The notes below the pieces were generated by a model. That model made no database searches and was not told the origin of the DNA. It saw only the letters and a program-made list of their open reading frames with translations. From contig JAKEFM010000284.1 of assembly GCA_022616055.1 (NCBI GenBank), positions 18,636-82,635 on the forward strand: a stretch of 64,000 nt of DNA. The letters are read 5' to 3'. The translations under genes were made by a program, and so were the position numbers. This document shows positions 1 through 55,081 of the stretch, piece by piece (position 1 is the stretch's first letter; the number at the start of each line of letters is the position of its first letter). The DNA is from Planctomycetota bacterium. Lineage in GTDB: Bacteria; Planctomycetota; UBA1135; JAKEFM01.

Positions 1-364
1 CTGGAAGGGGGAGGCCCACTTCCTCGGAGTCGCGGCGATGGCCATGCGGCGCGTGCTCGTCGACCACGCGCGCGCCAAGAAGGCCGAGAAGCGGGGCGGC
101 GGGCGGGAGCGGGTCGAGCTCGACGCCGAGCTCCCGCTCGACCTCGGCGAGGAGATCGACCTCGTCGCCCTCGACCGGGCGCTCGAGGAGCTCGCCGCGC
201 GCTCCGAGCGCCAGGTCCGCGTGGTCGAGCTGCGCTTCTTCGGAGGGCTCGACATGAAGAAGGTCGCCGAGACGCTCGGCATCGCCCTGCGGACGGCGGA
301 GGAGGACTGGCGCGTCGCGCGCGCCTGGCTCTCCTGGCGGCTGCGCCGCGAGGTCGAGGGATGA
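1..364 (+). CDS. ECF-type RNA polymerase sigma factor, C-terminal part (5' end lies outside the window)
   Basis: The frame is open from base 2 with no start in the window. Translation WKGEAHFLGVAAMAMRRVLVDHARAKKAEKRGGG...VVELRFFGGLDMKKVAETLGIALRTAEEDWRVARAWL is the linker plus sigma-70 region 4 HTH of an ECF sigma. The TGA overlaps the kinase ATG (ATGA at 361-364). Confidence 0.85.
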   Translation, partial: WKGEAHFLGVAAMAMRRVLVDHARAKKAEKRGGGRERVELDAELPLDLGEEIDLVALDRALEELAARSERQVRVVELRFFGGLDMKKVAETLGIALRTAEEDWRVARAWLSWRLRREVEG

Positions 365-3300
365 GGGATCCCCTCTACGACCGGGCGAGCGAGCTCTTCC
401 TCGCCGTCTGCGACCTCGCTCCGGCCGAACGGGAGGAGCGCCTCCAGCGCGCGTGCGTCGGGGACGCGGCGCTCCTCGCCCTGGTGCGCTCCCTGATCGG
501 GGGGGACGCGCGACCCCTGGTCCGCCTCGACGCCCCGGCCCTCGGTCCGGGCCTGGTCGATCCCTCCTCGTGGGAGAGGAGCCTGCCCGAGCGCGTGGCC
601 GGATACCGCGTCCTCTCCCGGATCGGGGAGGGGGGGATGGGCGTCGTCTTCCTCGCGGAGCAGGAGAAGCCCCGCCGACGGGTGGCCTTGAAGTGCATTC
701 GCACCCCCTTCGCCTCGGACGAGTTCCTGAAACGCTTCGAGCGCGAGGCGGAGATCCTCGGGTGGCTCAACCACCCGGGCATCGCGCAGGTCTTCGAGGC
801 GGGCACGGCCCGGGAGAACGGCCGGCCCTTCCCCTTCATCGCCATGGAGCTCGTCGACGGGAGGCCCTTGACGGAGTTCGCGGAGGCGGCCGGTCTCGGC
901 GTCCCGGCGCGCCTCGAGCTCCTCGCGGAGGTCTGCGACGCGGTCCACCACGCCCACGAGAAGGGGGTCATTCACCGCGACCTCAAGCCGCGCAACATCC
1001 TCGTGACGCCCGAGGGACGGCCGAAGGTCCTCGACTTCGGCGTGGCCCGCGCCGTCGAACCGGAGAAGGGGGAGGGCGCGTGGCGAACCCTCTCGGGCGA
1101 GCTGATCGGCACGCTTCCGACGATGAGCCCCGAGCAGCTCTCCCGCGATCCCTCGCAGGTCGACACGCGCAGCGACGTCTACGCCCTCGGGGTGGTCGCC
1201 TTCGAGCTCCTTGCCGGGCGCCTCCCGCACGACGTGACGGGCCTGCCGATGGACGAAGTCGTCCTCGCGATCGCGCGGGAGCCCGCCCCGCGGCTCCGCT
1301 CGATCCGCCCCGATCTCTCCGGCGACCTCGAGACGATCGTCGCCAAGGCGCTCGAGAAGGAGAGGAGCCGGCGTTACGCCTCGGCCGACGAGCTGGCGAA
1401 GGACCTGCGGCGCGTCCTGCGCCACGAGCCGATCGCGGCGCGGCCCCCGACCCTGCTCTACCACCTCGGGAAGTTCGCGCGCCGCAACAAGGCGCTCGTC
1501 GCGGGAGCGGCCCTCGGGGTCGCCGCCCTCCTCGCGGGCGCGATCGTCTCCCTCGGCCAGGCCGCTCGCGCGCGGGCCGCGGAGCGGACCTCCGAGGCGC
1601 GCGCGGCGCTCGCCCGGCGCCAGGGCTACCGCGCCTCGATCGCCGCCGCGCAGGGCGCGCTCGAGGCCCACGAGCCGCGCGAGGCGCGCCGCTACCTCGA
1701 GGAGGCCCCCGAGGAGGAGCGGCGCTGGGAGTGGCGTCACCTCTGGGCGCTCCTCGACGGCGGGCTCGGGCTCGTCCCCCCAGAGGAGGGCACCCTCGCC
1801 GCCGCGTTCGCCGCGGATCCCGAGGCGGTGCTGACGCTCTCGCGCGAGGGGGAGCTGGTCCGCCGGAACCCCGGACTCGGCGAGGTGATCGAGCGGCGCC
1901 CGCTCGGCGCGGGACCCCTTCTCTTCGGCGACTTCAGCGCCGACGGCCGCACGGTCGCCGCGCTCTTCGGGGCGGGCGGGAGCCGGGCGGCGGCATGGGA
2001 GACGCGGACGGGGGAGCGGACGTCGAGCGAGATCGAGCTCGGCCCCTCCTCGTGGCTCGCCGTCTCGGACGACGGCACGCGCCTCCTCGTCCAGGACAGC
2101 CTCAAGCCGCACGGCACGCTCCGGGTGCTCGCGCTCCCGGGCGGTGAGGAGGTGGCCTCCGCGCGATTCGTCGTCCACGCCGCCCATCTCGGGCCGGGCC
2201 GGTTCGTCTTCGGCGACTCCTACTCGAACAACTACGTCCGGGAGGAGTCCGGCGCCCGCATCTATCTCCCCACGGGGATCTTCCGCCAGACGACCTCCAT
2301 CGCGTCGTTCGAGGGGAACGCGACGATCCTCCTCGGCCTGAGCAACGGCAACATCCTGGAGATGGACCCGCTCGCCCGCGCGCCGGTGCGTGTCCTTGGG
2401 GGACACCGCGCCTCCGTCTCCTCGATCGACCCCGGGGCCGATCGCCTCGTCTCGGCGAGCGAGGACGGGACGCTCCGCGTCTGGCGGAAGGGGGAGGCGA
2501 GTCCGCGCTCGACGCTCTGCGGGAGCGAGGGGCGTCCGCTCCGCTCGGCCGCGCTCTCGCCCGACGCGCGCCGGGCGCTCGCGGTCACCGACGACGGGTC
2601 GGTCCGTCTCTGGGACCTCGAGCGGGAGGAGGGGGCCCAGCGCCTCACCCTCCACACGAGTTACGTCTACGACGTCGAGTTCTCGCCCGACGGCGCGCGC
2701 CTCGCCTCCTGCTCCTGGGACGGATCGCTCCGGGTGTGGGACGCCGAGGACGGCGAGCCCCTCGCCGTCCTCGAGGCCGGCCACCCCCTCCTCGACCTCG
2801 CCTGGTCCCCCGACGGCGCGACCCTCGCGGCGGGTTGCAAGGTCTCCGGCATGCACCGCTGGAACGCCGACACGGGCGAGGCGCTCCCCGAGGTCAGGAT
2901 CCCCGTCGAAATGTGGGTGAGCAGCGTCGCCTTCTCCCCCGACGGGCGACGGCTCGCCGCGGGGCTGCGCATCTTCTCGCGCTCGTACCGGGACGGCCTC
3001 GTCCTCGACGCGCGGACCGGCGAGGTCCTCGCCGACCTCGAGGTGGGGCCGGCCGAGTTCGACGCCGACGTCGCCTTCGACCCCGACGGCAGGCTCCTCC
3101 TCTCGGCCTCGCCCGCTCTCGTCGCCTTCGACCTCGAGTGGAAGGAGGCGCGGCGCACGTCGCCGCTCCCTTCGCAGCCCAACGCGCTCGCCGTGCGGCG
3201 GGACGGCGGGCTGCTCGCCACCGGTCACCGGGACTCCCGGATCCGCCTCTGGGACCCCCGCACGCTCGAATGCCTCCGCGAGATCGAGGGGCACAGGGGG

Positions 3301-3726
3301 AACGTCTACGGTCTCGCCTTCTCCCCCGACGGCACGCGCCTCGCCTCGGGAGCGGACGACGGGACGCTGCGCCTGTGGGACGTCGAGACCGGCGAACCCC
3401 TCGCCAAGTTCGAGGGGCACGGCGACTACGTCCATGCGGTCGCCTTCTCCCCCGACGGCCGGCAGGTCGCCACCGCGTCGGGCGACGGGACGATCCGCAT
3501 CTGGGACACCGTTCCGGAGCGCCTGCGCCGGCGCGCCGGACGAGAAGGCGCCCGGCTGCGGGAGCAGATGCGCCCGCGCGTCGATGCCCTCCTCGCCGAG
3601 CTCGGCGACCCCGCCGCGGTCGCCGCGCGCCTGCGCGGGGACCCTTCCCTGGATCCTTCGGCGCGCGAGGAGGCGCTGCGGGTCGTGCTCGCCACGGCCG
3701 CGGGGAGGCGCGGCACCGCCCGTTGA
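361..3726 (+). CDS. Membrane-spanning Ser/Thr protein kinase with C-terminal WD40 beta-propeller repeats
   Basis: 1121 aa. Hanks kinase motifs are present: GEGGMGVV, VALK, HRDLKPRNIL, DFG, SPEQ. There is one TM helix (ALVAGAALGVAALLAGAIVSL). WD40 signatures are repeated, e.g. GHRGNVYGLAFSPDGTRLASGADDGTLRLWD and GHGDYVHAVAFSPDGRQVATASGDGTIRIWD. Confidence 0.93.
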   Translation: MRDPLYDRASELFLAVCDLAPAEREERLQRACVGDAALLALVRSLIGGDARPLVRLDAPALGPGLVDPSSWERSLPERVAGYRVLSRIGEGGMGVVFLAEQEKPRRRVALKCIRTPFASDEFLKRFEREAEILGWLNHPGIAQVFEAGTARENGRPFPFIAMELVDGRPLTEFAEAAGLGVPARLELLAEVCDAVHHAHEKGVIHRDLKPRNILVTPEGRPKVLDFGVARAVEPEKGEGAWRTLSGELIGTLPTMSPEQLSRDPSQVDTRSDVYALGVVAFELLAGRLPHDVTGLPMDEVVLAIAREPAPRLRSIRPDLSGDLETIVAKALEKERSRRYASADELAKDLRRVLRHEPIAARPPTLLYHLGKFARRNKALVAGAALGVAALLAGAIVSLGQAARARAAERTSEARAALARRQGYRASIAAAQGALEAHEPREARRYLEEAPEEERRWEWRHLWALLDGGLGLVPPEEGTLAAAFAADPEAVLTLSREGELVRRNPGLGEVIERRPLGAGPLLFGDFSADGRTVAALFGAGGSRAAAWETRTGERTSSEIELGPSSWLAVSDDGTRLLVQDSLKPHGTLRVLALPGGEEVASARFVVHAAHLGPGRFVFGDSYSNNYVREESGARIYLPTGIFRQTTSIASFEGNATILLGLSNGNILEMDPLARAPVRVLGGHRASVSSIDPGADRLVSASEDGTLRVWRKGEASPRSTLCGSEGRPLRSAALSPDARRALAVTDDGSVRLWDLEREEGAQRLTLHTSYVYDVEFSPDGARLASCSWDGSLRVWDAEDGEPLAVLEAGHPLLDLAWSPDGATLAAGCKVSGMHRWNADTGEALPEVRIPVEMWVSSVAFSPDGRRLAAGLRIFSRSYRDGLVLDARTGEVLADLEVGPAEFDADVAFDPDGRLLLSASPALVAFDLEWKEARRTSPLPSQPNALAVRRDGGLLATGHRDSRIRLWDPRTLECLREIEGHRGNVYGLAFSPDGTRLASGADDGTLRLWDVETGEPLAKFEGHGDYVHAVAFSPDGRQVATASGDGTIRIWDTVPERLRRRAGREGARLREQMRPRVDALLAELGDPAAVAARLRGDPSLDPSAREEALRVVLATAAGRRGTAR

Positions 3727-3985: not shown

Positions 3986-6900
3986 TCACCTCGTCGTCGG
4001 AGGCTTGTAGACGGGGGGCTTCCGCGGCGGGCTCTTCTTGAGGGCGTCCATCGCGAGCGACACCGCCTTCTCGAGCTGCGGGTCCTTCCCCGCGATCATC
4101 TCCTTCGGCCACTCGACGACCTCGACGTCGGGGTGGACGCCGACGTTCTCGACGGCCCAGTTCCCCTCGGTGTCCATGATCCCGAAGGAGGCCGCCGTCA
4201 CGCTCCCCCCGTCCATGAGAGGGGGATAGCCCGAGATGCCGACGAGGCCGCCCCAGGTCCGGGTCCCGACGAGGGGGCCGATCTCCATCTTCTGGAAGAG
4301 GTAGGGCATCGCGTCGCCGCCCGAGCCCGCCATCTCGTTCACGACCATCACCTTCGGCCCCTCGATCGTCCCGAAGGGGGAGCGGCCGAGCCACTCCTCC
4401 CGGTTCATCCAGTAGCAGAGGACTTTCCGGTCGAGGACCGAGACGACGTAGTCGGCGAGCTGCCCGCCGTGGTTGAAGCGCTCGTCGAGGACGACCCCCT
4501 CCTTCCCGAGCTGGCTGTAGAAGTCGCGGTCGAAGGAGACCCTCCCCTGGAATCCGGTGTCGGGCATGTACACGTAGGCGAGGCGGCCCCCGGAGAGATC
4601 CTCGACGCGCATGCGGTTCGCCTCGACCCACGCCCGCTTGCGGAGGGACTGGTCGTCCGCAACCGGGACGACGGTCGCCGTCCGCGGGTTCGAGCCGTCC
4701 GGTTGCTCCGAGAGGGTGAGCTCCGTCTGGCGGTCCGCCGTGTGGACGAACGCCCGCTCGAGGTTCTCGGCCCCGGTCAGGGGGACGCCGTTGACGGCGA
4801 TCAGGTAGTCCCCGACCCGGGCGTCGACGCCGGGCTCGGTCAGCGGGGCGCGGAGCCCCGGGTTCCAGTTCTGCCCCGCGTAGATCCGGGCGATGCGGTG
4901 GCGGCCGTTCTCGACGGCGAAGTCGGCGCCGAGAAGACCGACGGGCGCCTCCCTCGGCACCTCGGGCATCTCCCCCCCGCCGACGTACTCGTGACCGCAG
5001 CACAGTTCCCCGATCATCTCCGCCACGAGGACGTTCAAGTCGGAGCGGTGGCGGACATGCGGGAGGAAGGCGCTCCAGCGGTCCCACATCTTCGGCCACT
5101 CGATGCCGTGCATGTTGCGGTCGTAGAAGTAGTCGCGCTCGATCCGCCACGCCTCGCGCAGGATCTGCGGCCACTCCCGCTCGGGGTCGACGCGGACCTT
5201 GACCGCGTCGACGGCGAGCGCCTTCTTCTCCTTCGCCTCGAGGTCCGCGAGGGACCACCCCTCCTTGGTGCGGAGGAGGAGGCTCTTGCCGTCCGCCGAG
5301 ATCTCGTAGTCCGCGACCCCCTTCGCGACCTCCTTCGCCTTGCGCTTCTTGAACTCGAAGGCCTTGAGGACCGTCCCGATCCGGGGCCCGTCCCCCTCCT
5401 CCTCCGGCGCTTCCGCCTCGACGAGGAAGTAGAGCGCCTTCTCCCCGCACTGGAGGGAGCCGTAGTCCCCCTCGGGGAGCGGGAGGGCGAGGACCCGCTG
5501 GTCGAGGCCCTCGGCGTCGAGGGCGGTCTTCGGGGGCTCCTTCTTCTTCGGCCGCGTCTCGGGGCCCGGCTCCTTCTCCTGTCCCTCCTCCTTCCCCTTC
5601 TCCTCGCCTTTCCCCTTCTCCTCCTCCTTCGCCCCCTTCTCCTCGTCCTCCTCCGCGTCGCCCACCCCCTCGTCGCTCCTCGGCGCGACCGGGCTCTTCT
5701 CCCCCTTCCGCAGCACGCAGACGTAGAGGTTGCCCCGGCCGTAGCGCGCGGCGGAGGCGCTCATGTCGAGGCCGAAGCGGTTCGGCCCGCTCGCGGTCGA
5801 GGCCCGGAAGAAGAGGAACTTCCCGTCCCGCGAGAAGCAGGGGCCGTCGGCCGAGCCGAAGGCGTCCGTGACGCGCAGGACCTTCCCCGTCGCGACCTCG
5901 AAGAGGGCGACGCGGTCGTAGGTCGTCGAGGGGTCGCGCTGCTCGAAGGCGATCCACGCCGAGTCCCCCGACCAGACGCCTGCCGGCCGCACGACGCCGA
6001 GGGAGCCGGCGCTGCGCCAGACGTCGGTCAGGGCGCCCGTCTCGAGCGTCACGAAGGCGAGGCGGTTCGTCTTGTCGTTGAAGAGGATCCTCTTCCCGTC
6101 GGGGCTCCACTTCGGGTCGTGGAAGAAGGCGCCTCCCCCGAGGTCGAAGGCCTTCGCCTCCTCCTTCCCGAGGTGGTCGCGCACGAGGAGGCGGTACTCC
6201 CCCGAGGCGTCCGAGAACCAGGCGACCTTCGTCCCGTCGGGCGACCAGACCGGGTCGCGGTCGTGGGCGGCCGGAGAGTTCGTGAGGTTCCGCGCGTCGC
6301 CGTGCTCCCTCGGCACCGTCACGACCTCCCCCCGGGTCTCGAAGACGGCGCGCTTCCCGTTCGGCGCGACGGAGGCCTTCCGGACGGACCCCTTCGCGTC
6401 CTGCCAGCGCGGGCGCCCCTCGAGCCCGTCGCTCGGGCAGAGGATCGAGAGGCGGGTCGACTGGTTCTTCCTCGGGTCGAGGAGGTGGATCGCCCCTCCC
6501 CGCTCGAAGGCGATCGCTCCTCCCCCCGCCGACATGTTCCGCACGCCGAAGTCGCGGAAATCCGTCACCCGCGTCGCCTCCTTCCCCCCAGGCTTGAATC
6601 TCCAGACGTTCATGACGCCGTCGCGGTCGGAGGCGAAGAAGACCTCCCCGTCGACGAAGCAGGGGAAGGTGTCGGTCGCGACGACGTGCGGGACCTGCTC
6701 GACCTCCTTCGTCGCGCGGTCGAAGATCCAGATCGGCGTCGTCCGGCCGCCCCGGTAGCGCTTCCAGGTCCGGAACGCGTCGGGGACCGGGGTGTAGACG
6801 ATCTTCCCCTCCCCGCCGAACGTCGCCCGGAAGGCCCTCGGGATCTCGAGGAGCTCCTCCGGCCCGCCGTCCACGGAGACGAGATAGAGCCGCGCCACCT

Positions 6901-7354
6901 CGGCGCCGCCGAGCCTCGGGCTGGCGAAGAGGACGCGCTTGCCGTCGGGGTGCCAGCCCACCACGCGATCGCCCATCGGGTGCCAGGTGAGGCGTTTCGG
7001 CGTCCCTCCCGTCGTCGGCAGCACGTAGACGTCTGCGTTCCCCTCGTACTGGCCGGTGAACGCGACGAGCCGTCCGTCGGGCGAGAAGCGCGGGCTCGAC
7101 TCGAGCCCGGCGTGGCTCGTGAGCCTCCGGGCGGTCCCGCCCGCGCGGGAGGCGATCCACACGTCGTTCGCGTAGACGAAGGCGACCTCGGCCGCCGAGA
7201 CGGTCGGGTCCTGGAGGAGGAGCGTCTCGCCCGCGGCGGCCGCGGGGGTCGGGACGGGCGCCTGGACCTGGACCGCCGTCGCCGGCCGGGCGCAGGCGGT
7301 GAGGGCCAGGATGGCGAGAGGGAGGGAACGGACGGCGTGGTGGCGGGGCGACAT
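3986..7354 (-). CDS. Exported tricorn-protease-like S41 peptidase (beta-propellers + PDZ-like + S41 core)
   Basis: 1122 aa with a signal peptide (LPLAILALTACARPATA). Propeller segments repeat (SPRFSPDGRLVAFTG, DPVWSPDGTKVAWFSD, DPKWSPDGKRILFND). The C-terminal S41-like core reads GGQLADYVVSVL...VVNEMAGSGGDAMPYLFQ. It carries an E/K-rich low-complexity insert. Confidence 0.85.
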   Translation of the reverse strand: MSPRHHAVRSLPLAILALTACARPATAVQVQAPVPTPAAAAGETLLLQDPTVSAAEVAFVYANDVWIASRAGGTARRLTSHAGLESSPRFSPDGRLVAFTGQYEGNADVYVLPTTGGTPKRLTWHPMGDRVVGWHPDGKRVLFASPRLGGAEVARLYLVSVDGGPEELLEIPRAFRATFGGEGKIVYTPVPDAFRTWKRYRGGRTTPIWIFDRATKEVEQVPHVVATDTFPCFVDGEVFFASDRDGVMNVWRFKPGGKEATRVTDFRDFGVRNMSAGGGAIAFERGGAIHLLDPRKNQSTRLSILCPSDGLEGRPRWQDAKGSVRKASVAPNGKRAVFETRGEVVTVPREHGDARNLTNSPAAHDRDPVWSPDGTKVAWFSDASGEYRLLVRDHLGKEEAKAFDLGGGAFFHDPKWSPDGKRILFNDKTNRLAFVTLETGALTDVWRSAGSLGVVRPAGVWSGDSAWIAFEQRDPSTTYDRVALFEVATGKVLRVTDAFGSADGPCFSRDGKFLFFRASTASGPNRFGLDMSASAARYGRGNLYVCVLRKGEKSPVAPRSDEGVGDAEEDEEKGAKEEEKGKGEEKGKEEGQEKEPGPETRPKKKEPPKTALDAEGLDQRVLALPLPEGDYGSLQCGEKALYFLVEAEAPEEEGDGPRIGTVLKAFEFKKRKAKEVAKGVADYEISADGKSLLLRTKEGWSLADLEAKEKKALAVDAVKVRVDPEREWPQILREAWRIERDYFYDRNMHGIEWPKMWDRWSAFLPHVRHRSDLNVLVAEMIGELCCGHEYVGGGEMPEVPREAPVGLLGADFAVENGRHRIARIYAGQNWNPGLRAPLTEPGVDARVGDYLIAVNGVPLTGAENLERAFVHTADRQTELTLSEQPDGSNPRTATVVPVADDQSLRKRAWVEANRMRVEDLSGGRLAYVYMPDTGFQGRVSFDRDFYSQLGKEGVVLDERFNHGGQLADYVVSVLDRKVLCYWMNREEWLGRSPFGTIEGPKVMVVNEMAGSGGDAMPYLFQKMEIGPLVGTRTWGGLVGISGYPPLMDGGSVTAASFGIMDTEGNWAVENVGVHPDVEVVEWPKEMIAGKDPQLEKAVSLAMDALKKSPPRKPPVYKPPTTR

Positions 7355-7430: not shown

Positions 7431-7457
7431 GGAACCCGATGTCACGGCGAAGGGGTC
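7431..7457 (+). promoter_or_regulatory. Candidate ECF-type promoter (GGAACC-N18-GTC) upstream of sigma-fusion gene 1
   Basis: GGAACC lies at 7431-7436 and GTC at 7455-7457, about 22 nt before ATG 7479. The spacing is one nt longer than in the better match at 51803-51828, and the -10 reads GGTC rather than CGTC. Confidence 0.3.
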
Positions 7458-7478: not shown

Positions 7479-10439
7479 ATGGCCCCGGATCCCCTCCCCG
7501 CCCGGCCGGAGATCCTCCTCGCCAATGCCGACTGGGTGCGGGCGCTCGCCCGGAGCCTCGCGAGCGACTCCGCGGAGGCCGACGACCTGGAGCAGGAGAC
7601 CTGGCTCGCGGCCCTCGACCACCCGGCCCCCACGGGCGGACGGCTCCGACCCTGGCTCGTCCGGGTGCTGCGCAACCTCGTGCGGAAGAGGCGTCGAACC
7701 GACCTCCGCCGGAAAGCGAGGGAGGAGGCCTCCGCCGGACCCTCCCCTCCCGGCGATCCCGCGGCGCTCGTCGAGCGGATCTCGATTCAGCAAGACGTCG
7801 TCCGGACGGTGGTCGCCCTCGACGAGCCCTATCGGTCCACGCTCCTCCTCCGGTACTTCGAGGGGCTCGAGATCGGCGAGATCGCACGCCGCCAGAGGAT
7901 CCCCCACGCCACGGTCCGGCAGCGACTGAAGAGGGGGCGGGAGCGCCTCCGCGAACGGCTCCTCCCTCGCTATGGAGGTGATCGGGAGGCCTGGTCGGCC
8001 GCGATGCTGCGCCTCGCGGAAACGCTCCGACCGCACCCGGCGCCGCTCCCACCCGGGGTCCCGGTGCTCGCCGCCGCCGGGAAGAAGGTGGCGGTCGGGA
8101 TCGCCGCGACCCTCCTCGTCGGCGTCGTCGGCTGGAGGGCAGGGATCTTCCCCGTCGGGCCGCCCGCAAACCCGATCCCCCCGACACCCGTGGCGGAGGC
8201 CACGCCCTTCCCAGGGAACGAGCGGGAGACCGGGAGGTCGGCGGACGAGTCGAGGTCTCCGGGTGCCGTGCGACGTGCTGCGGTCGCGGCTTCGCCCGCG
8301 ACCGACGGAGGATCGGGAGACGCGACCGCGTCCGGCCGTCTCGTCGTCCGGGCGCGCTGGAGGGAGGACGGCAGGGCGGCGGAGGGAGTCGTGGCGGTGG
8401 TCGGGAGGCCGGGTTCGACGGACTCGTGGACGGCCTGCGCGGAGACCGACGATCGAGGTGAGGTCCACTTCGTGCGCCTCCTCGCCGGTCGGTTCCGGGC
8501 TGCCCTCTGGGGGGGCGAGGAGGAGGAGGTGCTCGTGGCCGGAGGGGAGGAGGTCCGCGTGGAGTTGTCGGTCCCGCGCGGATTCGCGGTCGTGGGACGC
8601 GTCGTCGACCAAGGAGAGAGAGGCGTCCCCTCGGCCGATCTCTGGCTCTCGGCTCCCGAGAATTCCCGGCTCGGACTCGTCGTCTGCAAGACGGACGAGT
8701 CGGGAGGGTTCCGCCTCCCGTTCGTGACGGTGGACCAGTTCATCGGGGCGCGTGCCGCCGGGAAGCCCCCTTCCTACCTGCAGTCCGTCCGCGGCCGACC
8801 GGGGGACGAGGTCCGGATCCGGATCGTCCTCGAAGATTCCACGGCCCGGCTCGCGGGGAGCGTCTTCGACGGCTCCGGGGCTCCCGTCGCGGGTGCGTCC
8901 GTCGCCGTCACCGACCCGGACCGGAACTCGACCGTCCTGCTCTTCGACGGTCGAGGGACCCGCAATCCGCCGCCGCAGTGGAAGGTGACGGACGGAAGCG
9001 GAGCGTTCCGGTTCGACTCCCTCGCGCCGAGGCGCCTGCTCCTGGTCGTCTGGGCGCGGGGATTCGGCCTGTTCCGCAGGGTGATGGAGGCGCCCTCCAC
9101 GGACGAGGAGGAGGTCCGCGTGACGCTCGAGCCGGAGGCGCGGGTGTCGGGTCGCGTGACGGACGACCGCGGCCGCCCTGTCGCTCGCGCGAGGGTGGAG
9201 CGGATCGGGCCCGAGTCCATCTCTCGGTCGAGCGTGACCTCGGACGAAGACGGACGGTTCGAGCTCGCCGACCTCCCCGCCGAGGAGGCGACCTTCACGG
9301 CCCGCCACGATCGCCTCGGATTCGCCCTCGTCCGGCTGCGGCCGGAGGCGGGTCGGACGAAGGAGTGGAACCCGGTCCTGGCGAAGGAGGGGGGGCTCTC
9401 CGGCGACCTCGCCGACGCGTCGGGCCGTCCGCTCGGGGGCTGGTCGATCACCGTCCGGGACCCCTCGGAGCGCGATGCGCGAGAGACGGTTGTCCAGACC
9501 CGCTCGGACGGGTCGTTCTCCGTCCCGCTCCCGCCGGAGGGGCGACTCGAGATCCAGGCCTGCGCGCCCGGGGCCTGGACGGAGTTCCCGGCGCTCGTGC
9601 GACGCGACGTCGATCCCGACGCCGGCCCGATCCACCTCGTCCTCGCCGAACCGGATCGCACGTTCGGCCGGATCCTCGGGGCCGTCGCCGACCCCGAGGG
9701 GAAGCCGTCGGACGACGCGCTCGTGAGCGTCGACTCTCCCGGCTCGGCCCTGTGGCGGGGGTTCGTCCCCGAGGCCGGGACCGGCCGATTCGAGATCGAA
9801 CGGGTTCCTCCGGGACCCTGCCTCGTGGAAGTGCGCCCCCGCGAGTTCCCCTGGGTGTCCCTCGGTTCGCTCGAGGTCCGGGCGGGCGAGGTCGTCGACG
9901 TCGGGGCGGTCCGCCTCCGGCGGGGAGGAACGCTGAGCGGCGAGATCACTGGCGCCGCGGAGGCGTCGCTCGCGACCCTCGAGATCGAGCTCGCCGCCGA
10001 GGAATGGAAGGCTGCGAGGCCCGTCAGCCGGACCGGCAAGCGATTCTGGACGGGAAGCCTCGCCCCGGGCCGCTATCGACTCTCGGTCCGAGGAGACGGC
10101 CTCTGGAGCGAGGGGGCCGAGTGCGAGGTCGAGGAGGGGCTCGCGAAGCGAGTCGAGATCGCGGTCGAGCGCGCGGGTCTCCGGCGGGCGCTCTTCGAGC
10201 TCCCGCCCGACGCGACCCGGCCCGGTTGGCTCTGGTGCGAGGTCTACCGGGACGAGGAGCCGATCTGGGTCTGGGGCATGGAACCTTCGCCCTGGCGCGC
10301 GCCGGAGGCCCGGATCTCCGTCCCCCCCGGCGTGTATCGCCTCCATGCGGGGACGGACACCGGCCTCTCCTACGAGGGGCCGCTCGAGATGGGGGCCGCC
10401 GGCGAGGAGGGACCCTCGCTCTCCGTCCCTCTGCGCTAG
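7479..10439 (+). CDS. ECF sigma factor fused to a TM helix and a ~700 aa extracytoplasmic CarboxypepD_reg-like repeat array (copy 1)
   Basis: 986 aa from ATG 7479; the track start at 7299 adds an R-rich, non-protein-like leader. Sigma region 2 reads DDLEQETWLAALDH...WLVRVLRNLVRKRRR. Region 4 reads LDEPYRSTLLLRYFEGLEIGEIARRQRIPHATVRQRLKRGRERL. The TM helix is KKVAVGIAATLLVGVVGW. At least five G-x-V-x-D-x-x-G-x-P motifs follow (GRVVDQGERGVPSADLWL, GSVFDGSGAPVAGASVAV, GRVTDDRGRPVARARVER, GDLADASGRPLGGWSITV, GAVADPEGKPSDDALVSV). Confidence 0.8.
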   Translation: MAPDPLPARPEILLANADWVRALARSLASDSAEADDLEQETWLAALDHPAPTGGRLRPWLVRVLRNLVRKRRRTDLRRKAREEASAGPSPPGDPAALVERISIQQDVVRTVVALDEPYRSTLLLRYFEGLEIGEIARRQRIPHATVRQRLKRGRERLRERLLPRYGGDREAWSAAMLRLAETLRPHPAPLPPGVPVLAAAGKKVAVGIAATLLVGVVGWRAGIFPVGPPANPIPPTPVAEATPFPGNERETGRSADESRSPGAVRRAAVAASPATDGGSGDATASGRLVVRARWREDGRAAEGVVAVVGRPGSTDSWTACAETDDRGEVHFVRLLAGRFRAALWGGEEEEVLVAGGEEVRVELSVPRGFAVVGRVVDQGERGVPSADLWLSAPENSRLGLVVCKTDESGGFRLPFVTVDQFIGARAAGKPPSYLQSVRGRPGDEVRIRIVLEDSTARLAGSVFDGSGAPVAGASVAVTDPDRNSTVLLFDGRGTRNPPPQWKVTDGSGAFRFDSLAPRRLLLVVWARGFGLFRRVMEAPSTDEEEVRVTLEPEARVSGRVTDDRGRPVARARVERIGPESISRSSVTSDEDGRFELADLPAEEATFTARHDRLGFALVRLRPEAGRTKEWNPVLAKEGGLSGDLADASGRPLGGWSITVRDPSERDARETVVQTRSDGSFSVPLPPEGRLEIQACAPGAWTEFPALVRRDVDPDAGPIHLVLAEPDRTFGRILGAVADPEGKPSDDALVSVDSPGSALWRGFVPEAGTGRFEIERVPPGPCLVEVRPREFPWVSLGSLEVRAGEVVDVGAVRLRRGGTLSGEITGAAEASLATLEIELAAEEWKAARPVSRTGKRFWTGSLAPGRYRLSVRGDGLWSEGAECEVEEGLAKRVEIAVERAGLRRALFELPPDATRPGWLWCEVYRDEEPIWVWGMEPSPWRAPEARISVPPGVYRLHAGTDTGLSYEGPLEMGAAGEEGPSLSVPLR

Positions 10440-10968: not shown

Positions 10969-12855
10969 ATGATCCGGACACTCCTCGCGTCGACCCTCCT
11001 CCTCGCCCCTCTCGCCTCCGTCGCGACCGCCCAGTCGACGGCGTGCGTGGCCGGGGCGCCGGTCAGCTCCTACTGGGTCTGCCCCTACGCGTCCGGGTTC
11101 ACCTCGATCCTCGGCGATCCCGCGACCCAGTCGGTCGGATTCGGCTCCTGCTCGGACAATTCCCAGACGAACCCGAACGGGATCTCGATCCCCTTCGCCT
11201 TCTCCTACTTCGGATCGGCGACGAACTCCGTCCGGCCGAACACGAACGGCTCGATGAAGATCGGGTCGGGGGGAGGGGGAGACACGCCCGCGAACCAGGT
11301 CCTCCCCTCCACCGCGTCGCCCAACGGGATGGTGGCGCCCTTCTGGGACGACCTGAAGACGGGGCCGGTGGGCGATCCCTCCGCCATCTCCTACCTCGCG
11401 ACGCCCGCCTCCCTGATCGTCGAGTGGAACAACATGAAGTTCTCCGCGGCCGGCGCGTCGGGAGGCTCGCCGGGCCGGAACGGGAGCGTCACCTTCCAGG
11501 CCGCGCTCTTCCCGAACGGCGTGATCGAGTTCCGCTACGGGCCCTACACGCCCCCCGACACGACCACCTGCCCGCCGTACCCCGCGGACTCCTGCGGCTC
11601 CTCCTCGGCGTTCCCGCAGTCGGGGCCGACCGCGACGATCGGCCTCGAGAACACGGGCGGGACGGTCGGGGTCGACGGGACGGGGCTCGGAGGGGCGAAT
11701 CCCGCCCCCCCCCGCCACAACCTCCGCTTCACCCCCGCGACGGTGACCCCGGTCCCGGTCACCTACACGGTCACCTCGAACGGGACCCCCCCCTTCGCGT
11801 CGATCCAGGGCCTCCCGGGGACCATCCCGATGCTCCCGAGCCCGGGGTTCAACGACCCCGCGACCTGCCCGTCCTGCCCGGACAACTCGGGGTGGTTGCG
11901 CCAGCCGACGGCCGGGCCCGGCTCCGCGGCGAGCGGACCCGGGTCGATCCCCTGGCCCTTCACCCTCTTCGGGAGGGTCGCCCGCCACTTCAACCTCAAC
12001 GCGAACGGCATCCTCGTCCTCGGCGACCCGCTCGGCGGGGATCTCTCGTCGAACGCCTCCCCCTCGAGCAGCGCCGCCCCCAACTTCTACATCGCCCCGT
12101 TCTGGGACGACCTCGAGGCGACGGGGAGCTCCTTCGTGGGGGTGCGCCTCGGGAGCGTCCCGCCGTTCCGGACCCTGACGTTCGAGTGGAACGGCCTGGG
12201 GCTCTTCGACGGGACCTCGGGGGACTGCTCCGCGAGCGCCGACAGCGTCCGGATGCAGGTCGTCCTCCTCGAGGCCTCGGACAACATCGAGATCCGGTAC
12301 GACCCCACGAGCGTCCTCGGCGCGGGCTTCTCCGCCACCGCCGCGGTCGAGTCCGCCAGCGGTGCGTCCTCCGTGTCCACTCTCCCCGACTCGTCGAACG
12401 CCGCCCTCCCTCCGAGCAACGTCCTCCTCGACCCCTGCGACTGCGGAGCGGTCCGCTACCTCGGGCTCGGCTGCCCGGGGACGGGGGGCTTCGTCCCGAG
12501 GATCGGGACGACGGGCGTGGCGCCCGTCCTCGGCGCGGCGAACTTCGGCGTGACGATCACGGACGCGCTCGGGGGAGCGCCCGCGACCTTCGTCGTCGGG
12601 CTGGGTCCGCTCGGGCCGGGCGGACTCGTCGTCGTCCCGCCCTGCACGATGTGGGGCTTCGGGCTCCTGACGGCGGGGGGGGGACTGACGACCCCCGGGC
12701 CGCCCGGGTCGGGGACCCGCTGCGTCCTCGCGCCGATCCCGGCTGACCCCTCCCTGTCCTGCGGTACGCTCTCCCTCCAGGCCTCGGTCGTCGACCTCGG
12801 CGCCGCGAGCGGCCTCGTCGCGTTCACCGAGACGCTCCTCGTGACGATTCTCTAG
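10969..12855 (+). CDS. Secreted protein with two NIDO-like modules and the shared C-terminal module
   Basis: 628 aa. Signal peptide MIRTLLASTLLLAPLASVATAQS, with RBS GAGGTGA 5 nt upstream. The module is duplicated: FAFSYFG...VRPNTNG...APFWDDL...VEWNN...FQAALFPNGVIEFRY is followed by a second copy FTLFG...LNANG...APFWDDL...FEWNG...MQVVLLEASDNIEIRY. The C-terminus is ...PIPADPSLSCGTLSLQASVVD...TETLLVTIL. Confidence 0.85.
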   Translation: MIRTLLASTLLLAPLASVATAQSTACVAGAPVSSYWVCPYASGFTSILGDPATQSVGFGSCSDNSQTNPNGISIPFAFSYFGSATNSVRPNTNGSMKIGSGGGGDTPANQVLPSTASPNGMVAPFWDDLKTGPVGDPSAISYLATPASLIVEWNNMKFSAAGASGGSPGRNGSVTFQAALFPNGVIEFRYGPYTPPDTTTCPPYPADSCGSSSAFPQSGPTATIGLENTGGTVGVDGTGLGGANPAPPRHNLRFTPATVTPVPVTYTVTSNGTPPFASIQGLPGTIPMLPSPGFNDPATCPSCPDNSGWLRQPTAGPGSAASGPGSIPWPFTLFGRVARHFNLNANGILVLGDPLGGDLSSNASPSSSAAPNFYIAPFWDDLEATGSSFVGVRLGSVPPFRTLTFEWNGLGLFDGTSGDCSASADSVRMQVVLLEASDNIEIRYDPTSVLGAGFSATAAVESASGASSVSTLPDSSNAALPPSNVLLDPCDCGAVRYLGLGCPGTGGFVPRIGTTGVAPVLGAANFGVTITDALGGAPATFVVGLGPLGPGGLVVVPPCTMWGFGLLTAGGGLTTPGPPGSGTRCVLAPIPADPSLSCGTLSLQASVVDLGAASGLVAFTETLLVTIL

Positions 12856-20643: not shown

Positions 20644-21173
20644 GGCGGCTCCCATTCTCGAATCGGCCGTTCGACACCCCCGGCCCGGAGGGGGAACGGA
20701 AGCGTACGGACCAGCGCGCTCCCGGGTCAAGGAACCCGAGCCGAACGAAGCGGCAGAGGGGGAGCGCGCCGGTCCCCCGTCGGCGCGCCTCCGGGGCGGG
20801 CCCGGAGAGTGGAAGCGCCGGAGCCCGCGCAACCTCCCGGGTCGCGCCGCCGGGACCTCCCCGACCCGGATCCACCCGCGGGTCCCTGGCGGGGGGGGGC
20901 CGCAGGGCCGCCCCCCGCCCGGCGTCCGGCCCTCCCTTCGAAGTCTGAAAACGACACTCGTCCGGCTTCTATCCAGGATTCGACCCAATTCTAGGACTGT
21001 GCAAGCCTAGATCCTGGTTCTTGGGGGTTGACAGGGTCCCCGCAGGATTCGATCCTCCCCGGCGCAAGCCCCGGCGCGGGCGGGACGCCGCCGGGACGAC
21101 GACCGCAACGGGAGGGACCTGAACGGCGCTGCGGCGGAAAAACCCTCCCGCGAAGAAGGAAGGAGTCCGTTCG

Positions 21174-29484: not shown

Positions 29485-29861
29485 CCCCGCGGCTCCTTCT
29501 CCTCGAGGATCCGCCGCAGCTCCTCGATCTCCCCGCGGGTGAGGCGGCTTCGCTTCACGAAGTGGAGGAGGAGAGGGCTCGCCGACCCGTCGAAGACCCG
29601 CGCAACGAAGGATCGGCCCTCCGCGGCGACGCACGCCTCGCGGGAGACCGCCGGCTCGTAGAGGTAGCGCTTCCCGTCGGACTCGGTCGAGAGGACCCCC
29701 TTCTTGACGAGCCGCGCGAGGAGCGTCTTCACCGTCCGATCCGTCCAGGCGGCCTGCGGGCCGAGGGCCTGGGCGACCTGGCTTGCGGTCCGCGGGTGCT
29801 CCTCCCAGAGGACCCGCATCACCTTCCACTCGGCCTCCGAGATGCGCGGGGGCGCCTTCAT
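29481..29861 (-). CDS. BlaI/MecI/CopY family transcriptional repressor
   Basis: 126 aa. The winged-helix N-terminus reads ISEAEWKVMRVLWEEHPRTASQVAQAL...WTDRTVKTLLARLVKKGVL...DGKRYLYEP. It is translationally coupled to the M56 gene. Confidence 0.92.
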   Translation of the reverse strand: MKAPPRISEAEWKVMRVLWEEHPRTASQVAQALGPQAAWTDRTVKTLLARLVKKGVLSTESDGKRYLYEPAVSREACVAAEGRSFVARVFDGSASPLLLHFVKRSRLTRGEIEELRRILEEKEPRG

Positions 29862-29892
29862 CGAGAGCCTTCCTAGTCGCCGGGAACGGGAT

Positions 29893-35384: not shown

Positions 35385-35386
35385 CG

Positions 35387-37519: not shown

Positions 37520-37527
37520 CGGGCCGG

Positions 37528-46780: not shown

Positions 46781-46804
46781 ATCGTACGGGTCCGGAGGCG
46801 CGCC

Positions 46805-51955: not shown

Positions 51956-54900
51956 TCAGCGGCGGATCGAGACCTCGACCCGCTCGCGCGGCTTCACGAC
52001 GACCGGGACGCGGCGCGAGAGATCCTCGCGCTGGTCGGCCGCGGGCGGGCCGTCCTTCCGGAGGTCTCGCTGCACGCAGGCCTCGTAGGAGCCCGGCAGG
52101 ACGTCCGGGAAGAGAACGCGGTCCTCCGGAATCCGGTCGCGGAAGAGGATCGCCTCGCGCCGCGGGAGATCTCCCTCCTTCGGGATCAGGACGACGCGCG
52201 AGGTCTCATCGTCCCCGAGGTCGAACGAAGGGTCGAGGCTCACCTCGACACTCCCATGCACGGGCACGACGATTCTCGCTTCGGGAATCCGAGGAGAGTG
52301 AGCCACGTCGTAGGTCCGCCCGCCGACGCGGGCTTGGATCACGACGTCGTCGGCCGGGAGGCCGGACAGCTCGTAGCGGCCCTCGTCGAGTGGCCTCACC
52401 CCGATCACCAGCCCACCGAGGATCCTCACTTGCGCGGACGTCGGTCTTCCTTCCTCGTCCTCGACGCTGACGACGACCTGGTGGCCGCGAGTCAGCCGGA
52501 ACTCGAGCGGGGTGCCGTCCTCCGGAATCCGGAGGTCCTCGAACGCCCTCGCGACGAATCCGACGCTGGAGATCGTCACGCGGGCTCTGTCCGCGTAGAG
52601 CTTCTCCATCCGGAAGGACCCCGTCGCGTCCGTCTGAACCCCGGCGCCGAACGGGCGGATCTCGACCCTCACCTGAGCACCGGCGAGGGGCCGGCCCTCT
52701 TCGTCGAGCACCCTCCCGCGGAAGTCCCTCGGTCGCGTCCGGATCACCGCTTCCACCACCCGCGTCTCGAACTCGCCGAGGGGAGGGAGCTCCCTCTCCT
52801 CCACGACGAAGCCGCACCAGTCGAGGACCCGGAGCGTCAGCGGAAGCGAAGGTCGGAGGGAACAGAGGCGCGCACGGCCGGCTCCGTCGGGAGAGAAGGT
52901 CCTCGTCCCTCCTCGGGCGTCGACGCTTTGACTCTGGGACCGGCTCGCGCCCGCCGCCACGTGCGCCTTGGCGGGATTCCAACCCCCCCCGCCCGCGAAG
53001 AAGGGCTCCCGGGAGAACAGGGCGACGTCGAGCTCCGGCGGGACGCCTCCCTCAGGGGTGCGGAGGAGGACCTCGAGCATGTTCGAAGACGGGAGGGTGA
53101 CCACGAGGGGCGCGTTCATTGCCGCCGGAACGGGGACCTCCACGGCCGCGTAGCCGAGGGCCCCGACGACGATCCGCGACACGTCGAAGCTCGCGCCGCG
53201 AAGGAGGCCCCGGCCTTCCGCGTCGGTCGGCACGCTCTTTCTTTCCTCGTCGTCGTCCGGGAGAGCCACGGCGTTCTCGACGGGCCGACCCGACGGGTCG
53301 CGCACGACGAAGTGGAGGTCGCGGGTCGTCGCGAGCTCCACGTCGCCGAGGTCCCATCCCGGAGGAAGCTCCGCCCGCTCGAAGGGGATCGATCGGTGGC
53401 CGCGGCCATCCTTCCCGGAGACCGTCACGATCCCCCGACGAAAACCCTGGTAGATGCCGGAGATCGGGACGCGGAAGCGCCCCTTCTCGTCGGCGGTGCC
53501 GCCGACCAGGGCTTCCATCCTGAGGGTGTCCTTCTCGCCGACGATCGTCAGGGATGCCTGCACGACGGGGTTCGGCACGGGTTCCCTTCCCCCCGGCTCG
53601 ACGACGCGGCCGACGAGCGCTGGAACTCGCACGAGTTCGATCCTCAGGCCCTCGACGGGCGCGCGGAAACCGAGGGTTTGTCCTCCACCCGACGCGGTCT
53701 CGTAGCCGAACGGCAGATCGAGGCTTCCGCTCCAGTCCTCCGGCAGACCGGCGAAGCGGAAGGCCCCGCTCTCGTCCGTCCCCTGCGTGAGCCCCGCCGG
53801 CCCGCCCGGATCGTGACCGAGGCTGGCCCAGGCCGAATCGGGGATCCCTTCCACACGCAGGAGCGCGCGTTCCGAAGAGAGCGAGAGCCCGAGCGCCTCC
53901 TCCGGCGCGCGGCCGTCGACGAGGATCCACCCGGAGACCGCGGCACCCTCGTCCAGGACGACCTCCCGGCGACCCGGCGAGAGCACGATTCCCTCCAGAT
54001 GAGGCGCCGTCGCCGGCGCGATCGCGAGGAGCGTCGCGGCCTCTCCGTTGCCGGGGACGGCGATCTCGCCTCGCTCGTTCGCCGCCCCGGCGAAGAGGAT
54101 CTTCTCGCCGGCGAAGACCGCCGCCTTCGCCCCCGGGACAGCGCGCCGGTGGGAGTCCACGAGGGTGAGGACGGCGTGGGCCCTGGGCGCGAATTCGGTC
54201 CTCCGGGTCGCGCCGTCCGCGGGATCCGCGACGGGGGACTGCGAGACCGTTTTTCCGGTGGATCCAGGGACGGTGGAGTCGAGGCCCGGCGCGGTCGAGA
54301 CGAGACCGGTCCCCGGCGAAGACCCGAGCCAGAGGTACCCGGATCCCCCCGCGGCGAGGAGGACCCCGACGAGGGCAACTTTCTTGGTCATCGCAGTGAC
54401 TCCGATAGAAACGGCCGCCGTACCCATGGAACCCGACAGCCCGGCGACCGTCGCCGGGAACGCGCCCTCAGCATGTCGGAGGACCTGCGCGCGGATCGCG
54501 GCGAGCCCGCGCGAGGGCGCGAGACAGAGGACGGAGCCGACCGCGAAGCTCGGGGGGAGCGCTTTCCGGAGGAGCTTCAGCCCACGGTGGATCCGCACGT
54601 GGGCCGCGTTGAGCGAGATCCCGAGCGCCGAGGCGATCTCGCTCGGGCTCCTCCCCTCGACGAGGTACTCCCGGATCGCGCCGGAGTAGGTGGCGGGGAG
54701 CTCCTCCACGGTCTTCCCGAGCCTTTCCCGGAGCTCGCGCTCGGAGGCCTCCGCCAGCGGGTCGGGCGCCGCCCGCTCGGGCACCCGGGCGGGATCGGGC
54801 ACCCTCTCGGCGCGACGCCGCGCCTCCATCGCGCGGTGCGCGAGGATGCCGATCATCCAGGGGAGGAACCGGCGCTCGGGGTCGTACTGCGCGCGCTTCT

Positions 54901-55081
54901 CGATCGCCGCGAGGAAGGTCGCCTGGAGCGCGTCCTCCGCCTCGGCCTCGTCGCCGCAGAGGTGTCGCGCGATCCCGAGGAGCTCGGGCGCCGCGAGGTC
55001 GAACACCTTCCCGAGCGCCGAGACGTCCCCGCGCTCCTGGAATCGCCTGTAGAGCCGATCGAGCTTCCGGTCCTTCGTCAC
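51956..55081 (-). CDS. ECF sigma factor fused to a TM helix and a ~750 aa CarboxypepD_reg-like repeat array (copy 2)
   Basis: 1041 aa from GTG 55081; the track start at 55471 adds an R/P/G-rich leader. Sigma region 2 reads EAEDALQATFLAAIEKRAQYDPERRFLPWMIGILAHRAMEARRR. Region 4 reads LPATYSGAIREYLVEGRSPSEIASALGISLNAAHVRIHRGLKLLRKAL. The TM helix is KKVALVGVLLAAGGSGYLWLG. The repeats include GRVVEPGGREPVPNPVV, FVVRDPSGRPVENAVAL, GRVLDEEGRPLAGAQVRV and VSVEDEEGRPTSAQVRI. Confidence 0.8.
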   Translation of the reverse strand: MTKDRKLDRLYRRFQERGDVSALGKVFDLAAPELLGIARHLCGDEAEAEDALQATFLAAIEKRAQYDPERRFLPWMIGILAHRAMEARRRAERVPDPARVPERAAPDPLAEASERELRERLGKTVEELPATYSGAIREYLVEGRSPSEIASALGISLNAAHVRIHRGLKLLRKALPPSFAVGSVLCLAPSRGLAAIRAQVLRHAEGAFPATVAGLSGSMGTAAVSIGVTAMTKKVALVGVLLAAGGSGYLWLGSSPGTGLVSTAPGLDSTVPGSTGKTVSQSPVADPADGATRRTEFAPRAHAVLTLVDSHRRAVPGAKAAVFAGEKILFAGAANERGEIAVPGNGEAATLLAIAPATAPHLEGIVLSPGRREVVLDEGAAVSGWILVDGRAPEEALGLSLSSERALLRVEGIPDSAWASLGHDPGGPAGLTQGTDESGAFRFAGLPEDWSGSLDLPFGYETASGGGQTLGFRAPVEGLRIELVRVPALVGRVVEPGGREPVPNPVVQASLTIVGEKDTLRMEALVGGTADEKGRFRVPISGIYQGFRRGIVTVSGKDGRGHRSIPFERAELPPGWDLGDVELATTRDLHFVVRDPSGRPVENAVALPDDDEERKSVPTDAEGRGLLRGASFDVSRIVVGALGYAAVEVPVPAAMNAPLVVTLPSSNMLEVLLRTPEGGVPPELDVALFSREPFFAGGGGWNPAKAHVAAGASRSQSQSVDARGGTRTFSPDGAGRARLCSLRPSLPLTLRVLDWCGFVVEERELPPLGEFETRVVEAVIRTRPRDFRGRVLDEEGRPLAGAQVRVEIRPFGAGVQTDATGSFRMEKLYADRARVTISSVGFVARAFEDLRIPEDGTPLEFRLTRGHQVVVSVEDEEGRPTSAQVRILGGLVIGVRPLDEGRYELSGLPADDVVIQARVGGRTYDVAHSPRIPEARIVVPVHGSVEVSLDPSFDLGDDETSRVVLIPKEGDLPRREAILFRDRIPEDRVLFPDVLPGSYEACVQRDLRKDGPPAADQREDLSRRVPVVVKPRERVEVSIRR

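Follow-up and report, generated by a model that had tools for sequence, protein, structure and literature searches.

The 64,000-nucleotide stretch of planctomycetal DNA analysed here (the window) carries, at positions 7479..10439 of its forward strand, a gene for a 986-residue protein in which an extracytoplasmic function (ECF) sigma factor, a single transmembrane (TM) helix and a large repetitive ectodomain are joined in one polypeptide. The gene is a single open reading frame (ORF), open over 986 codons from an ATG start to the stop codon at 10437-10439, and its assignment as a single-pass, membrane-anchored ECF sigma factor draws on Pfam, NCBIfam, AlphaFold and an identical database record. 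The window has a G+C content of 72% and is full of long ORFs that overlap in all frames, so that an open frame is by itself weak evidence; the codon-position composition of 7479-10439 (GC3 0.88 vs GC2 0.58) nevertheless marks it as a genuine coding frame. The identical 986-residue protein is recorded as P0001 ([quoted passage not shown], MAG denoting a metagenome-assembled genome) and is also encoded in a GTDB representative MAG (locus L113, CBRGOK010000040.1).

The N-terminal part displays the two domains of an ECF sigma factor. Sigma-70 region 2 (sigma2; core RNA polymerase binding and -10 recognition) spans residues 15-74 (7521..7700, + strand; Pfam PF04542, E-value 4e-11; AlphaFold pLDDT >90), while region 4 (sigma4), the -35 recognition helix-turn-helix, spans residues 107-164 (7797..7970, + strand; Pfam PF08281, 6e-10 at residues 107-157). 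Superposed by Foldseek on the DNA-bound region 4 of sigmaE (2h27), sigma4 alone gave a target-normalised TM-score of 0.81 and a root mean square deviation (rmsd) of 1.3 Å. The linker between the two domains (residues ~75-106, ~32 residues) lies under the 50-residue limit of ECF sigma factors, and neither Sigma70_r1 nor Sigma70_r3 was matched in Pfam even at E<=1. The protein belongs to NCBIfam TIGR02937 (sigma70-ECF; 69.5 bits vs a cut-off of 42.9) and passed no specific sigma subfamily model of that collection. The sigma domains resemble solved ECF sigmas in fold, and the nearest solved structures by sequence are Mycobacterium tuberculosis SigE and SigL and Bacillus subtilis SigW. Across the family described below, Trp-59 of sigma2 is invariant, Asp-36, Gln-39 and Leu-60 are nearly so, and sigma4 contains the signature EPYRSTxLLRYFEGL; this invariance of the motifs that contact RNA polymerase and DNA indicates that the sigma part has been selected as a sigma factor. 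The protein is thus an ECF (group 4) sigma factor, predicted to bind core polymerase and to direct promoter-specific transcription.

Linker, transmembrane helix and ectodomain

Approximately 40 residues separate sigma4 from the hydrophobic helix. Directly behind sigma4 they contain a conserved segment (RLD...GGDR.AW..AL.PLA), of which residues 166-183 (GGDREAWSAAMLRLAETL; 7974..8027, + strand; consensus GGDRxAW..AL.PLA) form a family-specific post-sigma4 helix. In alignment A1 the segment is conserved at Trp-172 (78/92 sequences), Leu-176 (72/92) and Arg-169 (71/92), and in an AlphaFold model of residues 1-230 the helix extends from residue 169 to residue 183 with pLDDT values of 84-92, a higher confidence than it has in the full-length model, which also places it there. 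It is the sole conserved cytoplasmic element besides the sigma domains, is covered by no Pfam family, and is possibly autoinhibitory or a site for a protease or adaptor. The linker between sigma4 and the membrane has no cysteine/histidine cluster, and no match to the anti-sigma families zf-HC2, RskA, FecR or DUF4880 was found in the 986-residue protein even at E<=1 in Pfam.

The single TM helix comprises residues 203-220 (8085..8138, + strand), with two lysines just before it, and is assigned on the Kyte-Doolittle scale and the AlphaFold helix (203-220) only. Its hydrophobic peak (KVAVGIAATLLVGVVGW, residues 203-219; Kyte-Doolittle 1.87 in a 17-residue window) is the sole strongly hydrophobic stretch of the protein, and a peak of at least 1.6 recurs in 116 of 120 homologues at a median position of residue 200. 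The extension after sigma4 amounts to 820 residues with one conserved TM helix, well over the 50 residues by which membrane-spanning extensions are defined. Because the protein has no signal peptide and the sigma domains must be cytoplasmic, the N-terminus would lie inside and the C-terminus outside the cell, an orientation with which the distribution of acidic residues around the family helix (0.26 before vs 1.73 after) is consistent. Behind the helix, residues 221-282 (8139..8324, + strand) constitute a proline-rich, apparently disordered spacer (pLDDT <50) that is predicted to be extracytoplasmic; proline accounts for 18% of the 60 residues past the TM helix, vs a family average of 12%.

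The remainder of the protein, residues 283-986 (8325..10436, + strand), is an array of eight tandem β-sandwich domains of the transthyretin-like/CarboxypepD_reg type. Pfam CarboxypepD_reg (PF13620) matches it in six stretches with 177.8 bits (cut-off 32.3; 5e-53), and a full-length AlphaFold2 model built on a 92-sequence alignment (mean pLDDT 84) presents eight β-sandwich domains, mostly with pLDDT >90. In that model the sigma domains are likewise of high confidence, while residues 184-280, which hold the TM helix and the proline-rich spacer, are of low confidence. The motif G.V.D..G.P..GA.V ... TD..G.F is common to six or seven of the domains and is lacking in the last. A structural similarity search of the Protein Data Bank (PDB) with Foldseek returned alpha-2-macroglobulin MG domains, Gram-positive pilins, CnaB-type arrays, SdrD B repeats and the TIE protein, all of them generic tandem arrays; with the whole model, the same search revealed no enzyme fold, no defined ligand-binding fold and no clue to a ligand.

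The original prediction for this gene, made without database searches, had read it as a complete ECF sigma with regions 2 and 4 that runs on without a stop into a linker of ~40 residues, too short for a classical anti-sigma domain, followed by one TM helix and a CarboxypepD_reg-like array of ~700 residues. Each of these elements is borne out by the matches to Sigma70_r2, Sigma70_r4_2 and CarboxypepD_reg and by the models presented above. It had also named no precedent for such an ectodomain on a sigma factor; full-text literature searches for carboxypeptidase-regulatory domains with sigma factors likewise retrieved nothing relevant, and the main text of the classification papers is silent on the combination.

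Family distribution and the second sigma copy

A full-length homologue search yielded 286 matches at E<=1e-5, and the architecture was read for the best 120 of them. All 120 combine sigma domains with CarboxypepD_reg in proteins of 600-1450 residues, and they are named as Planctomycetes/Planctomycetota or as Kofleriaceae (Myxococcota) MAGs. When residues 1-225 were searched with HMMER against 1.84 billion cluster representatives (50% identity), at least 1,795 clusters matched at E<=1e-30; the best 150 matches are mostly 700-1300 residues long and their alignments extend via the linker into the TM helix. An independent scan of one genome per species, with a DNA pattern coding only for the sigma4 signature EPYRSTxLLR, identified 117 loci, nearly all in MAGs of Planctomycetota, with a few in Myxococcota and one in a cultured organism, Saltatorellus ferox Poly30, whose gene (NZ_CP036434.1, about 2,237,200-2,240,000 and beyond) carries r2, r4_2 and CarboxypepD_reg. 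Among the 47 complete genes of this set (at least 600 residues past the motif), 44 encode CarboxypepD_reg and none encodes WD40. Several paralogues occur per MAG, with five pattern matches in one of them. The gene hence belongs to a very large, experimentally uncharacterised family found mainly in Planctomycetota, which may be numbered in the ECF catalogue already. Among cultured organisms, the nearest relatives of both sigma copies of the window (see below) belong to the Saltatorellus/Engelhardtia clade, for which a particular wealth of ECF sigma factors has been described (bioRxiv 10.1101/817700).

In some family members, of which several are named Kofleriaceae (P0032, P0040, P0047, P0052, P0054, P0077, P0086, P0099, P0117 and others), the ectodomain contains PDZ domains as well (PF17820/PF00595/PF13180), which in the sensor part recall peptide sensing of the DegS/RseP type. 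One genome-derived member carries an FGE-sulfatase domain.

The conservation of the fusion, which the homologue search had been proposed to establish, also bears on its reality. A frameshift or a missed stop could in principle have joined a normal ECF sigma gene to a separate membrane-protein gene, a reading encouraged by the many long spurious ORFs that high-GC DNA yields and by relatives that look split into a short sigma gene plus fragments. However, hundreds of independent assemblies contain the unbroken fusion, and their alignments cross the junction, which makes a frameshift artefact very unlikely, and the GC3 signal describes one continuous coding frame. The split cases examined lie in error-prone contigs: beside one short-sigma relative (L123) an aromatic lyase gene is broken into three pieces, and two others (L124, L125) come from contigs, long-read or of low coverage, on which many short genes were called. 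Since other genes on contigs of this kind are also broken, the split relatives are read as sequencing errors, and the probability that the fusion is an artefact of assembly or annotation is negligible. Naturally split versions, with a sigma gene beside a separate TM-ectodomain gene and the extension representing a former anti-sigma factor, were also considered; the candidates (P0191, P0160, P0168) reside in fragmented, apparently frameshift-ridden long-read contigs and were rejected. Database versions of the EPYRST sigma family that appear to stand alone are often frameshift artefacts. A homologue search confined to the sigma part gave mostly fragments and contributed little.

The window contains a second gene of the same architecture, as the designation of the first as "copy 1" had implied. 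Copy 2 (51956..55081, - strand) encodes a 1041-residue protein with an ECF sigma, a TM helix and a CarboxypepD_reg ectodomain, and both copies (P0001/P0198) are annotated by NCBI on one Planctomycetes MAG contig. The two differ in sigma lineage (their sigma parts are ~30% identical): copy 2 has neither the EPYRST nor the GGDRxAW motif, and no pairwise similarity was detectable between the two ectodomains. Among the relatives of copy 2 (P0198, identical; P0199, 89%; P0200, 64%; further proteins at 34%) are proteins from cultured Engelhardtia mirabilis without the β-sandwich array, and the search with copy 2 also retrieved WD40-fused ECFs as distant relatives, in which the TM peak falls at residues 250-280. 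One genome thus couples this kind of sensor module to two or more sigma lineages, which fits the domain shuffling proposed for planctomycetal ECFs (PMC7671368). Directly after copy 2, on the same strand, lies a gene for an FG-GAP/VCBS repeat protein (49144-51765, - strand); FG-GAP proteins are also encoded on both sides of the homologue P0013 (L002) and at 30086-31801 (- strand) of the window, and such genes may be recurrently associated with copy-2-like or related genes.

Candidate promoter and genomic neighbourhood

Upstream of the sigma gene, 22 nucleotides (nt) before the ATG, reading of the sequence revealed a candidate ECF-type promoter at 7431..7457 (+ strand), which comprises a -35-like GGAACC (7431-7436), a 15-nt spacer and a -10-like GGGGTC (7452-7457). 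Across the family, the -35-like word TGAACC occurs in the sense orientation upstream of 21 of 82 genes, vs 2/82 in antisense, 2/76 in coding sequence and a mean of 2.7 (maximum 7) after shuffling. It typically precedes the start codon by 30-45 nt, and one of the words GGTGTC, GGGACT and GGGGTC often stands 15-16 nt behind it; loci with the motif include L016, L017, L030, L041, L048, L055, L075 and L088. The classical GGAAC/AAC-N16-17-CGT patterns show no enrichment ahead of the family genes, and no TGAACC-type site precedes copy 2. Positive autoregulation is common among ECF sigma factors. A motif of the type TGAACC-N15-16-GTC is suggestive of a family-specific autoregulatory promoter, and a motif at the sigma factor's own promoter, which would fit positive autoregulation, hints that the sigma reaches RNA polymerase in vivo.

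The sigma gene is flanked by a divergent gene for an exported tricorn-type S41 protease (3986-7354, - strand; 1122 residues; PD40, Tricorn_C1, PDZ_Tricorn and Peptidase_S41 domains), which has a lipoprotein-like signal sequence (…LAILALTAC…). This protease also contains an unusual acidic, lysine/glutamate-rich insert (…EEDEEKGAKEEEKGKGEEKGKEEGQEKE…). Farther upstream, and convergent with the tricorn gene, lies a gene for a Ser/Thr protein kinase (361-3726, + strand; 1121 residues) that has a hydrophobic segment and ends in a WD40 propeller, a typical planctomycetal signalling protein. On the other side, the sigma gene is directly followed by a gene for a probably secreted protein with little Pfam annotation and a weak NIDO-like match (10969-12855, + strand), which could be co-transcribed with the sigma gene, and by an esterase gene.

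The context of relatives was sampled at four distinct homologue loci (five retrieved) and through 62 genes flanking 47 family members. The four loci have unrelated neighbours and none of their called genes has an S41 domain; among the 62 flanking genes no Pfam family exceeds four occurrences, and S41 proteases, M50 site-2 proteases and anti-sigma factors are all absent from the recurrent families. The association with the divergent protease suggested by the original prediction is unsupported, as this neighbourhood is not conserved; the tricorn protease was accordingly rejected as a conserved partner, there being no recurrent neighbour of any kind. The kinase-WD40 gene was likewise rejected as a regulator, as kinases account for only two of the 62 flanking genes in relatives and show no conserved link. 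No separate anti-sigma gene is present among the neighbours in the window, at the four homologue loci or among the recurrent flanking families. The family genes behave as stand-alone genes with no conserved partner, in agreement with the description by Pinto and da Fonseca of planctomycetal ECFs with C-terminal extensions (PMC7671368).

Elsewhere, the window encodes another proteolysis-based transmembrane signalling pair, which consists of a BlaI/MecI-type repressor (29484-29894, - strand; Penicillinase_R, 2e-34) immediately upstream of a BlaR1-type M56 peptidase sensor (27220-29928, - strand; 3e-46). The sensor has a long C-terminal extension, and its listed ORF start overlaps the repressor, the true start lying probably farther downstream. 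An apparent cluster for reductive pyrimidine/β-alanine catabolism occupies 34038-41160 (dihydropyrimidine dehydrogenase-like Fer4_20/Pyr_redox_2, class-III aminotransferase, DUF1264, amidohydrolase and CN-hydrolase), and an aldehyde dehydrogenase gene is located at 45217-46920. Large, probably secreted proteins are also encoded, namely a 1244-residue Kelch-repeat protein (17254-20988, - strand) and a 1163-residue protein with no Pfam match (41273-44764, + strand).

Proposed mechanism of activation and comparison with known sigma factors

The protein is best interpreted as a one-polypeptide transmembrane signalling device whose sigma factor would be held at the membrane and freed by regulated proteolysis, a reading that we regard as probable, if not by a large measure. 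The cytoplasmic ECF sigma would be tethered by the 40-residue linker to the membrane helix, with the extracytoplasmic proline-rich spacer and the eight-domain transthyretin-like stalk acting as the sensor. The tether, possibly aided by the post-sigma4 helix, would keep the sigma off RNA polymerase until a signal arrived at the ectodomain, be it a ligand, contact with a surface, or an attack in which a periplasmic protease damages or trims it. An intramembrane protease of the site-2 type would then cut the TM helix, whose glycine-rich and moderately hydrophobic character would suit such an enzyme, and release a sigma fragment of ~20-23 kDa. The freed sigma would bind core RNA polymerase and transcribe from promoters of the TGAACC-N15-16-GTC type, its own included. 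Proteolysis is preferred because it has been established for the one fused sigma that has been studied, IutY (ECF243; Prc and RseP), and proposed for ECF52/53, including SCO4117 (ECF52) (PMC8999054). The original prediction had named proteolytic release or action at the membrane, which is a reasonable suggestion.

Several observations weigh against this interpretation. A link of the family to a gene for a site-1 or site-2 protease was not seen among the 62 flanking genes, no such gene was found in the window, and no family member has been studied experimentally. The TM helix of the protein, with three glycines, is only moderately hydrophobic (1.87 vs a family mean of 2.22), and lysine plus arginine counts are equal on both sides of the helix across the family, so that the acidic-residue bias alone supports the N-in orientation. 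The relative arrangement of sigma2 and sigma4 in the model of residues 1-230 is uncertain (pTM 0.53), and that model has global TM-scores of 0.3-0.4 to both polymerase-bound and anti-sigma-bound ECF sigmas; with no global fit to either state, autoinhibition by the post-sigma4 helix is unproven. Finally, the composite promoter pattern is not above chance within the whole window, for which reason the candidate promoter is only suggestive.

Other ways of operating such a protein differ in where the switch is placed. The adjacent tricorn/S41 protease (3986-7354) could be a dedicated site-1 protease that trims the sigma ectodomain: it is a true member of its class by all four of its domains, its N-terminus resembles a signal peptide with a lipobox, and in IutY and related systems the site-1 cut is made by an S41 protease, Prc (PMC8999054). 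The pairing is, however, not conserved, as S41 is absent from the recurrent families of the flanking genes and from the homologue loci; a single faint S41 match near a frameshifted relative is not meaningful, no promoter of the family type faces the protease gene, and the chance of such a dedicated role is slim. That no protease is genetically linked to the family would in turn suit a sigma that is active while still anchored, recruiting RNA polymerase to membrane-proximal DNA in the manner of the activators ToxR, TcpP and CadC, with the ectodomain acting by clustering or conformation. The post-sigma4 linker of at least 40 residues, conserved in length, might serve as a flexible tether, and WD40-fused planctomycetal ECFs have been reported in detergent-soluble (membrane) fractions of Tuwongella (PMC8567305). 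Yet sigma4 must dock on the β-flap and on -35 DNA, for which a 40-residue, half-helical tether has little reach; no sigma is known to act while membrane-bound, and the fused sigma/anti-sigma IutY needs cleavage for activity (PMC8999054). Anchored activity is for these reasons thought quite unlikely.

The switch might alternatively reside in the GGDRxAW..AL.PLA helix, as a minimal built-in anti-sigma element that folds back between sigma2 and sigma4 and is relieved conformationally by the signal, proteolysis being secondary or absent. Such an arrangement is likened to the C-terminal extensions of ECF41/ECF42, whose contacts with the sigma core are established (PMC7826278), here coupled across the membrane. 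The conservation of the helix (Trp-172 and Arg-169 above all), the lack of any other conserved cytoplasmic element beyond the sigma domains and the high-confidence prediction of the helix argue for this role. On the other hand, its 15-18 residues are far below the size of any known anti-sigma domain, the interdomain geometry is of low confidence, and it is difficult to see how a conformational signal would cross a single TM helix and a disordered spacer, so that the proposal appears unlikely. A more far-reaching view, also of low probability in our estimate, is that these proteins would form the largest unrecognised class of "one-component" transmembrane sigmas, with thousands of members in Planctomycetota and some in Myxococcota, that signal unlike any studied sigma, either by anchored initiation or through the short helix as a new minimal anti-sigma switched by the stalk.

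Release by regulated proteolysis, the preferred reading, shares its overall logic with RpoE-RseA and SigW-RsiW, in which a membrane-held sigma with homologous domains and a sensor outside is set free by site-1/site-2 cleavage, as is proposed here; in the present protein a covalent bond takes the place of the non-covalent sigma/anti-sigma interface, and no anti-sigma gene is adjacent. IutY of Pseudomonas putida is closer in design, since in it an ECF sigma at the N-terminus, one TM helix and a periplasmic sensor form a single polypeptide, and its activation by regulated proteolysis has been shown experimentally (PMC8999054). IutY nonetheless has a FecR-type anti-sigma domain and works with a TonB-dependent receptor, whereas neither FecR, another anti-sigma domain nor a nearby receptor gene is found here, and the sigma lineage and phylum differ. 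The ECF52, ECF53 and ECF48 proteins of Actinobacteria (for example SCO4117 of Streptomyces coelicolor) display a C-terminal extension with TM helices, a proline-rich extracytoplasmic segment and a β-rich ectodomain, in their case carbohydrate-binding, and proteolytic activation has been proposed for them (PMC8999054). In contrast to the present protein, their stretch from sigma4 to the membrane includes an anti-sigma domain of the zinc-finger (ZAS-like) type, and they differ in phylum and ectodomain family. As neither FecR/DUF4880 nor ZAS was matched between sigma4 and the TM helix at E<=1, the protein does not qualify as a sigma/anti-sigma hybrid of either kind.

The most similar group is ECF57 (ECF01-Gob), the WD40-fused planctomycetal ECFs, which average 5.3 copies per planctomycetal genome and have no studied member (PMC7826278, PMC8999054, PMC8567305, PMC11032199). 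Both groups are found mainly in the same phylum, with many paralogues per genome, and consist of an ECF core, a linker, one TM helix and a repeat extension of 700-900 residues; in neither is there an anti-sigma domain, a conserved partner gene or an experimentally studied member. The WD40-fused ECFs retrieved as distant relatives of copy 2 also have one TM helix after sigma4 and thus share this design. The differences are nevertheless clear. The ectodomain is a transthyretin-like/CarboxypepD_reg array and not a WD40 propeller, WD40 being absent from the 986-residue protein as well as from all 47 complete family genes. ECF57 has a conserved cysteine in each of sigma2 and sigma4 (PMC8999054), and in the WD40-fused P0256-P0267 these lie in GVCRR (sigma2) and LLCCLEG (sigma4), while copy 1 has no cysteine in residues 1-200 and copy 2 none at those columns. 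The linker is shorter (~40 vs ~80 residues) and has its own motif, GGDRxAW..AL.PLA. By the two features tested, WD40 and the cysteine pair, the protein is set apart from ECF57.

In view of these comparisons, the novelty was overstated in the original prediction. A TM-fused sigma lacking an anti-sigma domain is not new, as it is known from the WD40-fused ECF01-Gob/ECF57 proteins (PMC8999054, PMC8567305, PMC11032199), and the joining of a sigma to a transmembrane sensor of its own is an accepted principle. What is new, within the literature searched, is the kind of ectodomain, the lineage of the sigma and the conserved helix behind sigma4.

The general picture of ECF regulation is unchanged by these findings. 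The coupling of one kind of sensor module to at least two sigma lineages bears on the origin of new signalling proteins by domain shuffling. The question of how a covalently membrane-anchored sigma is activated concerns all planctomycetal ECFs with large C-terminal extensions, and the present family offers a clean test case for it, with at least 1,795 clusters, a simple architecture, one linker motif, an apparent promoter motif and a member in the cultured Saltatorellus ferox Poly30.

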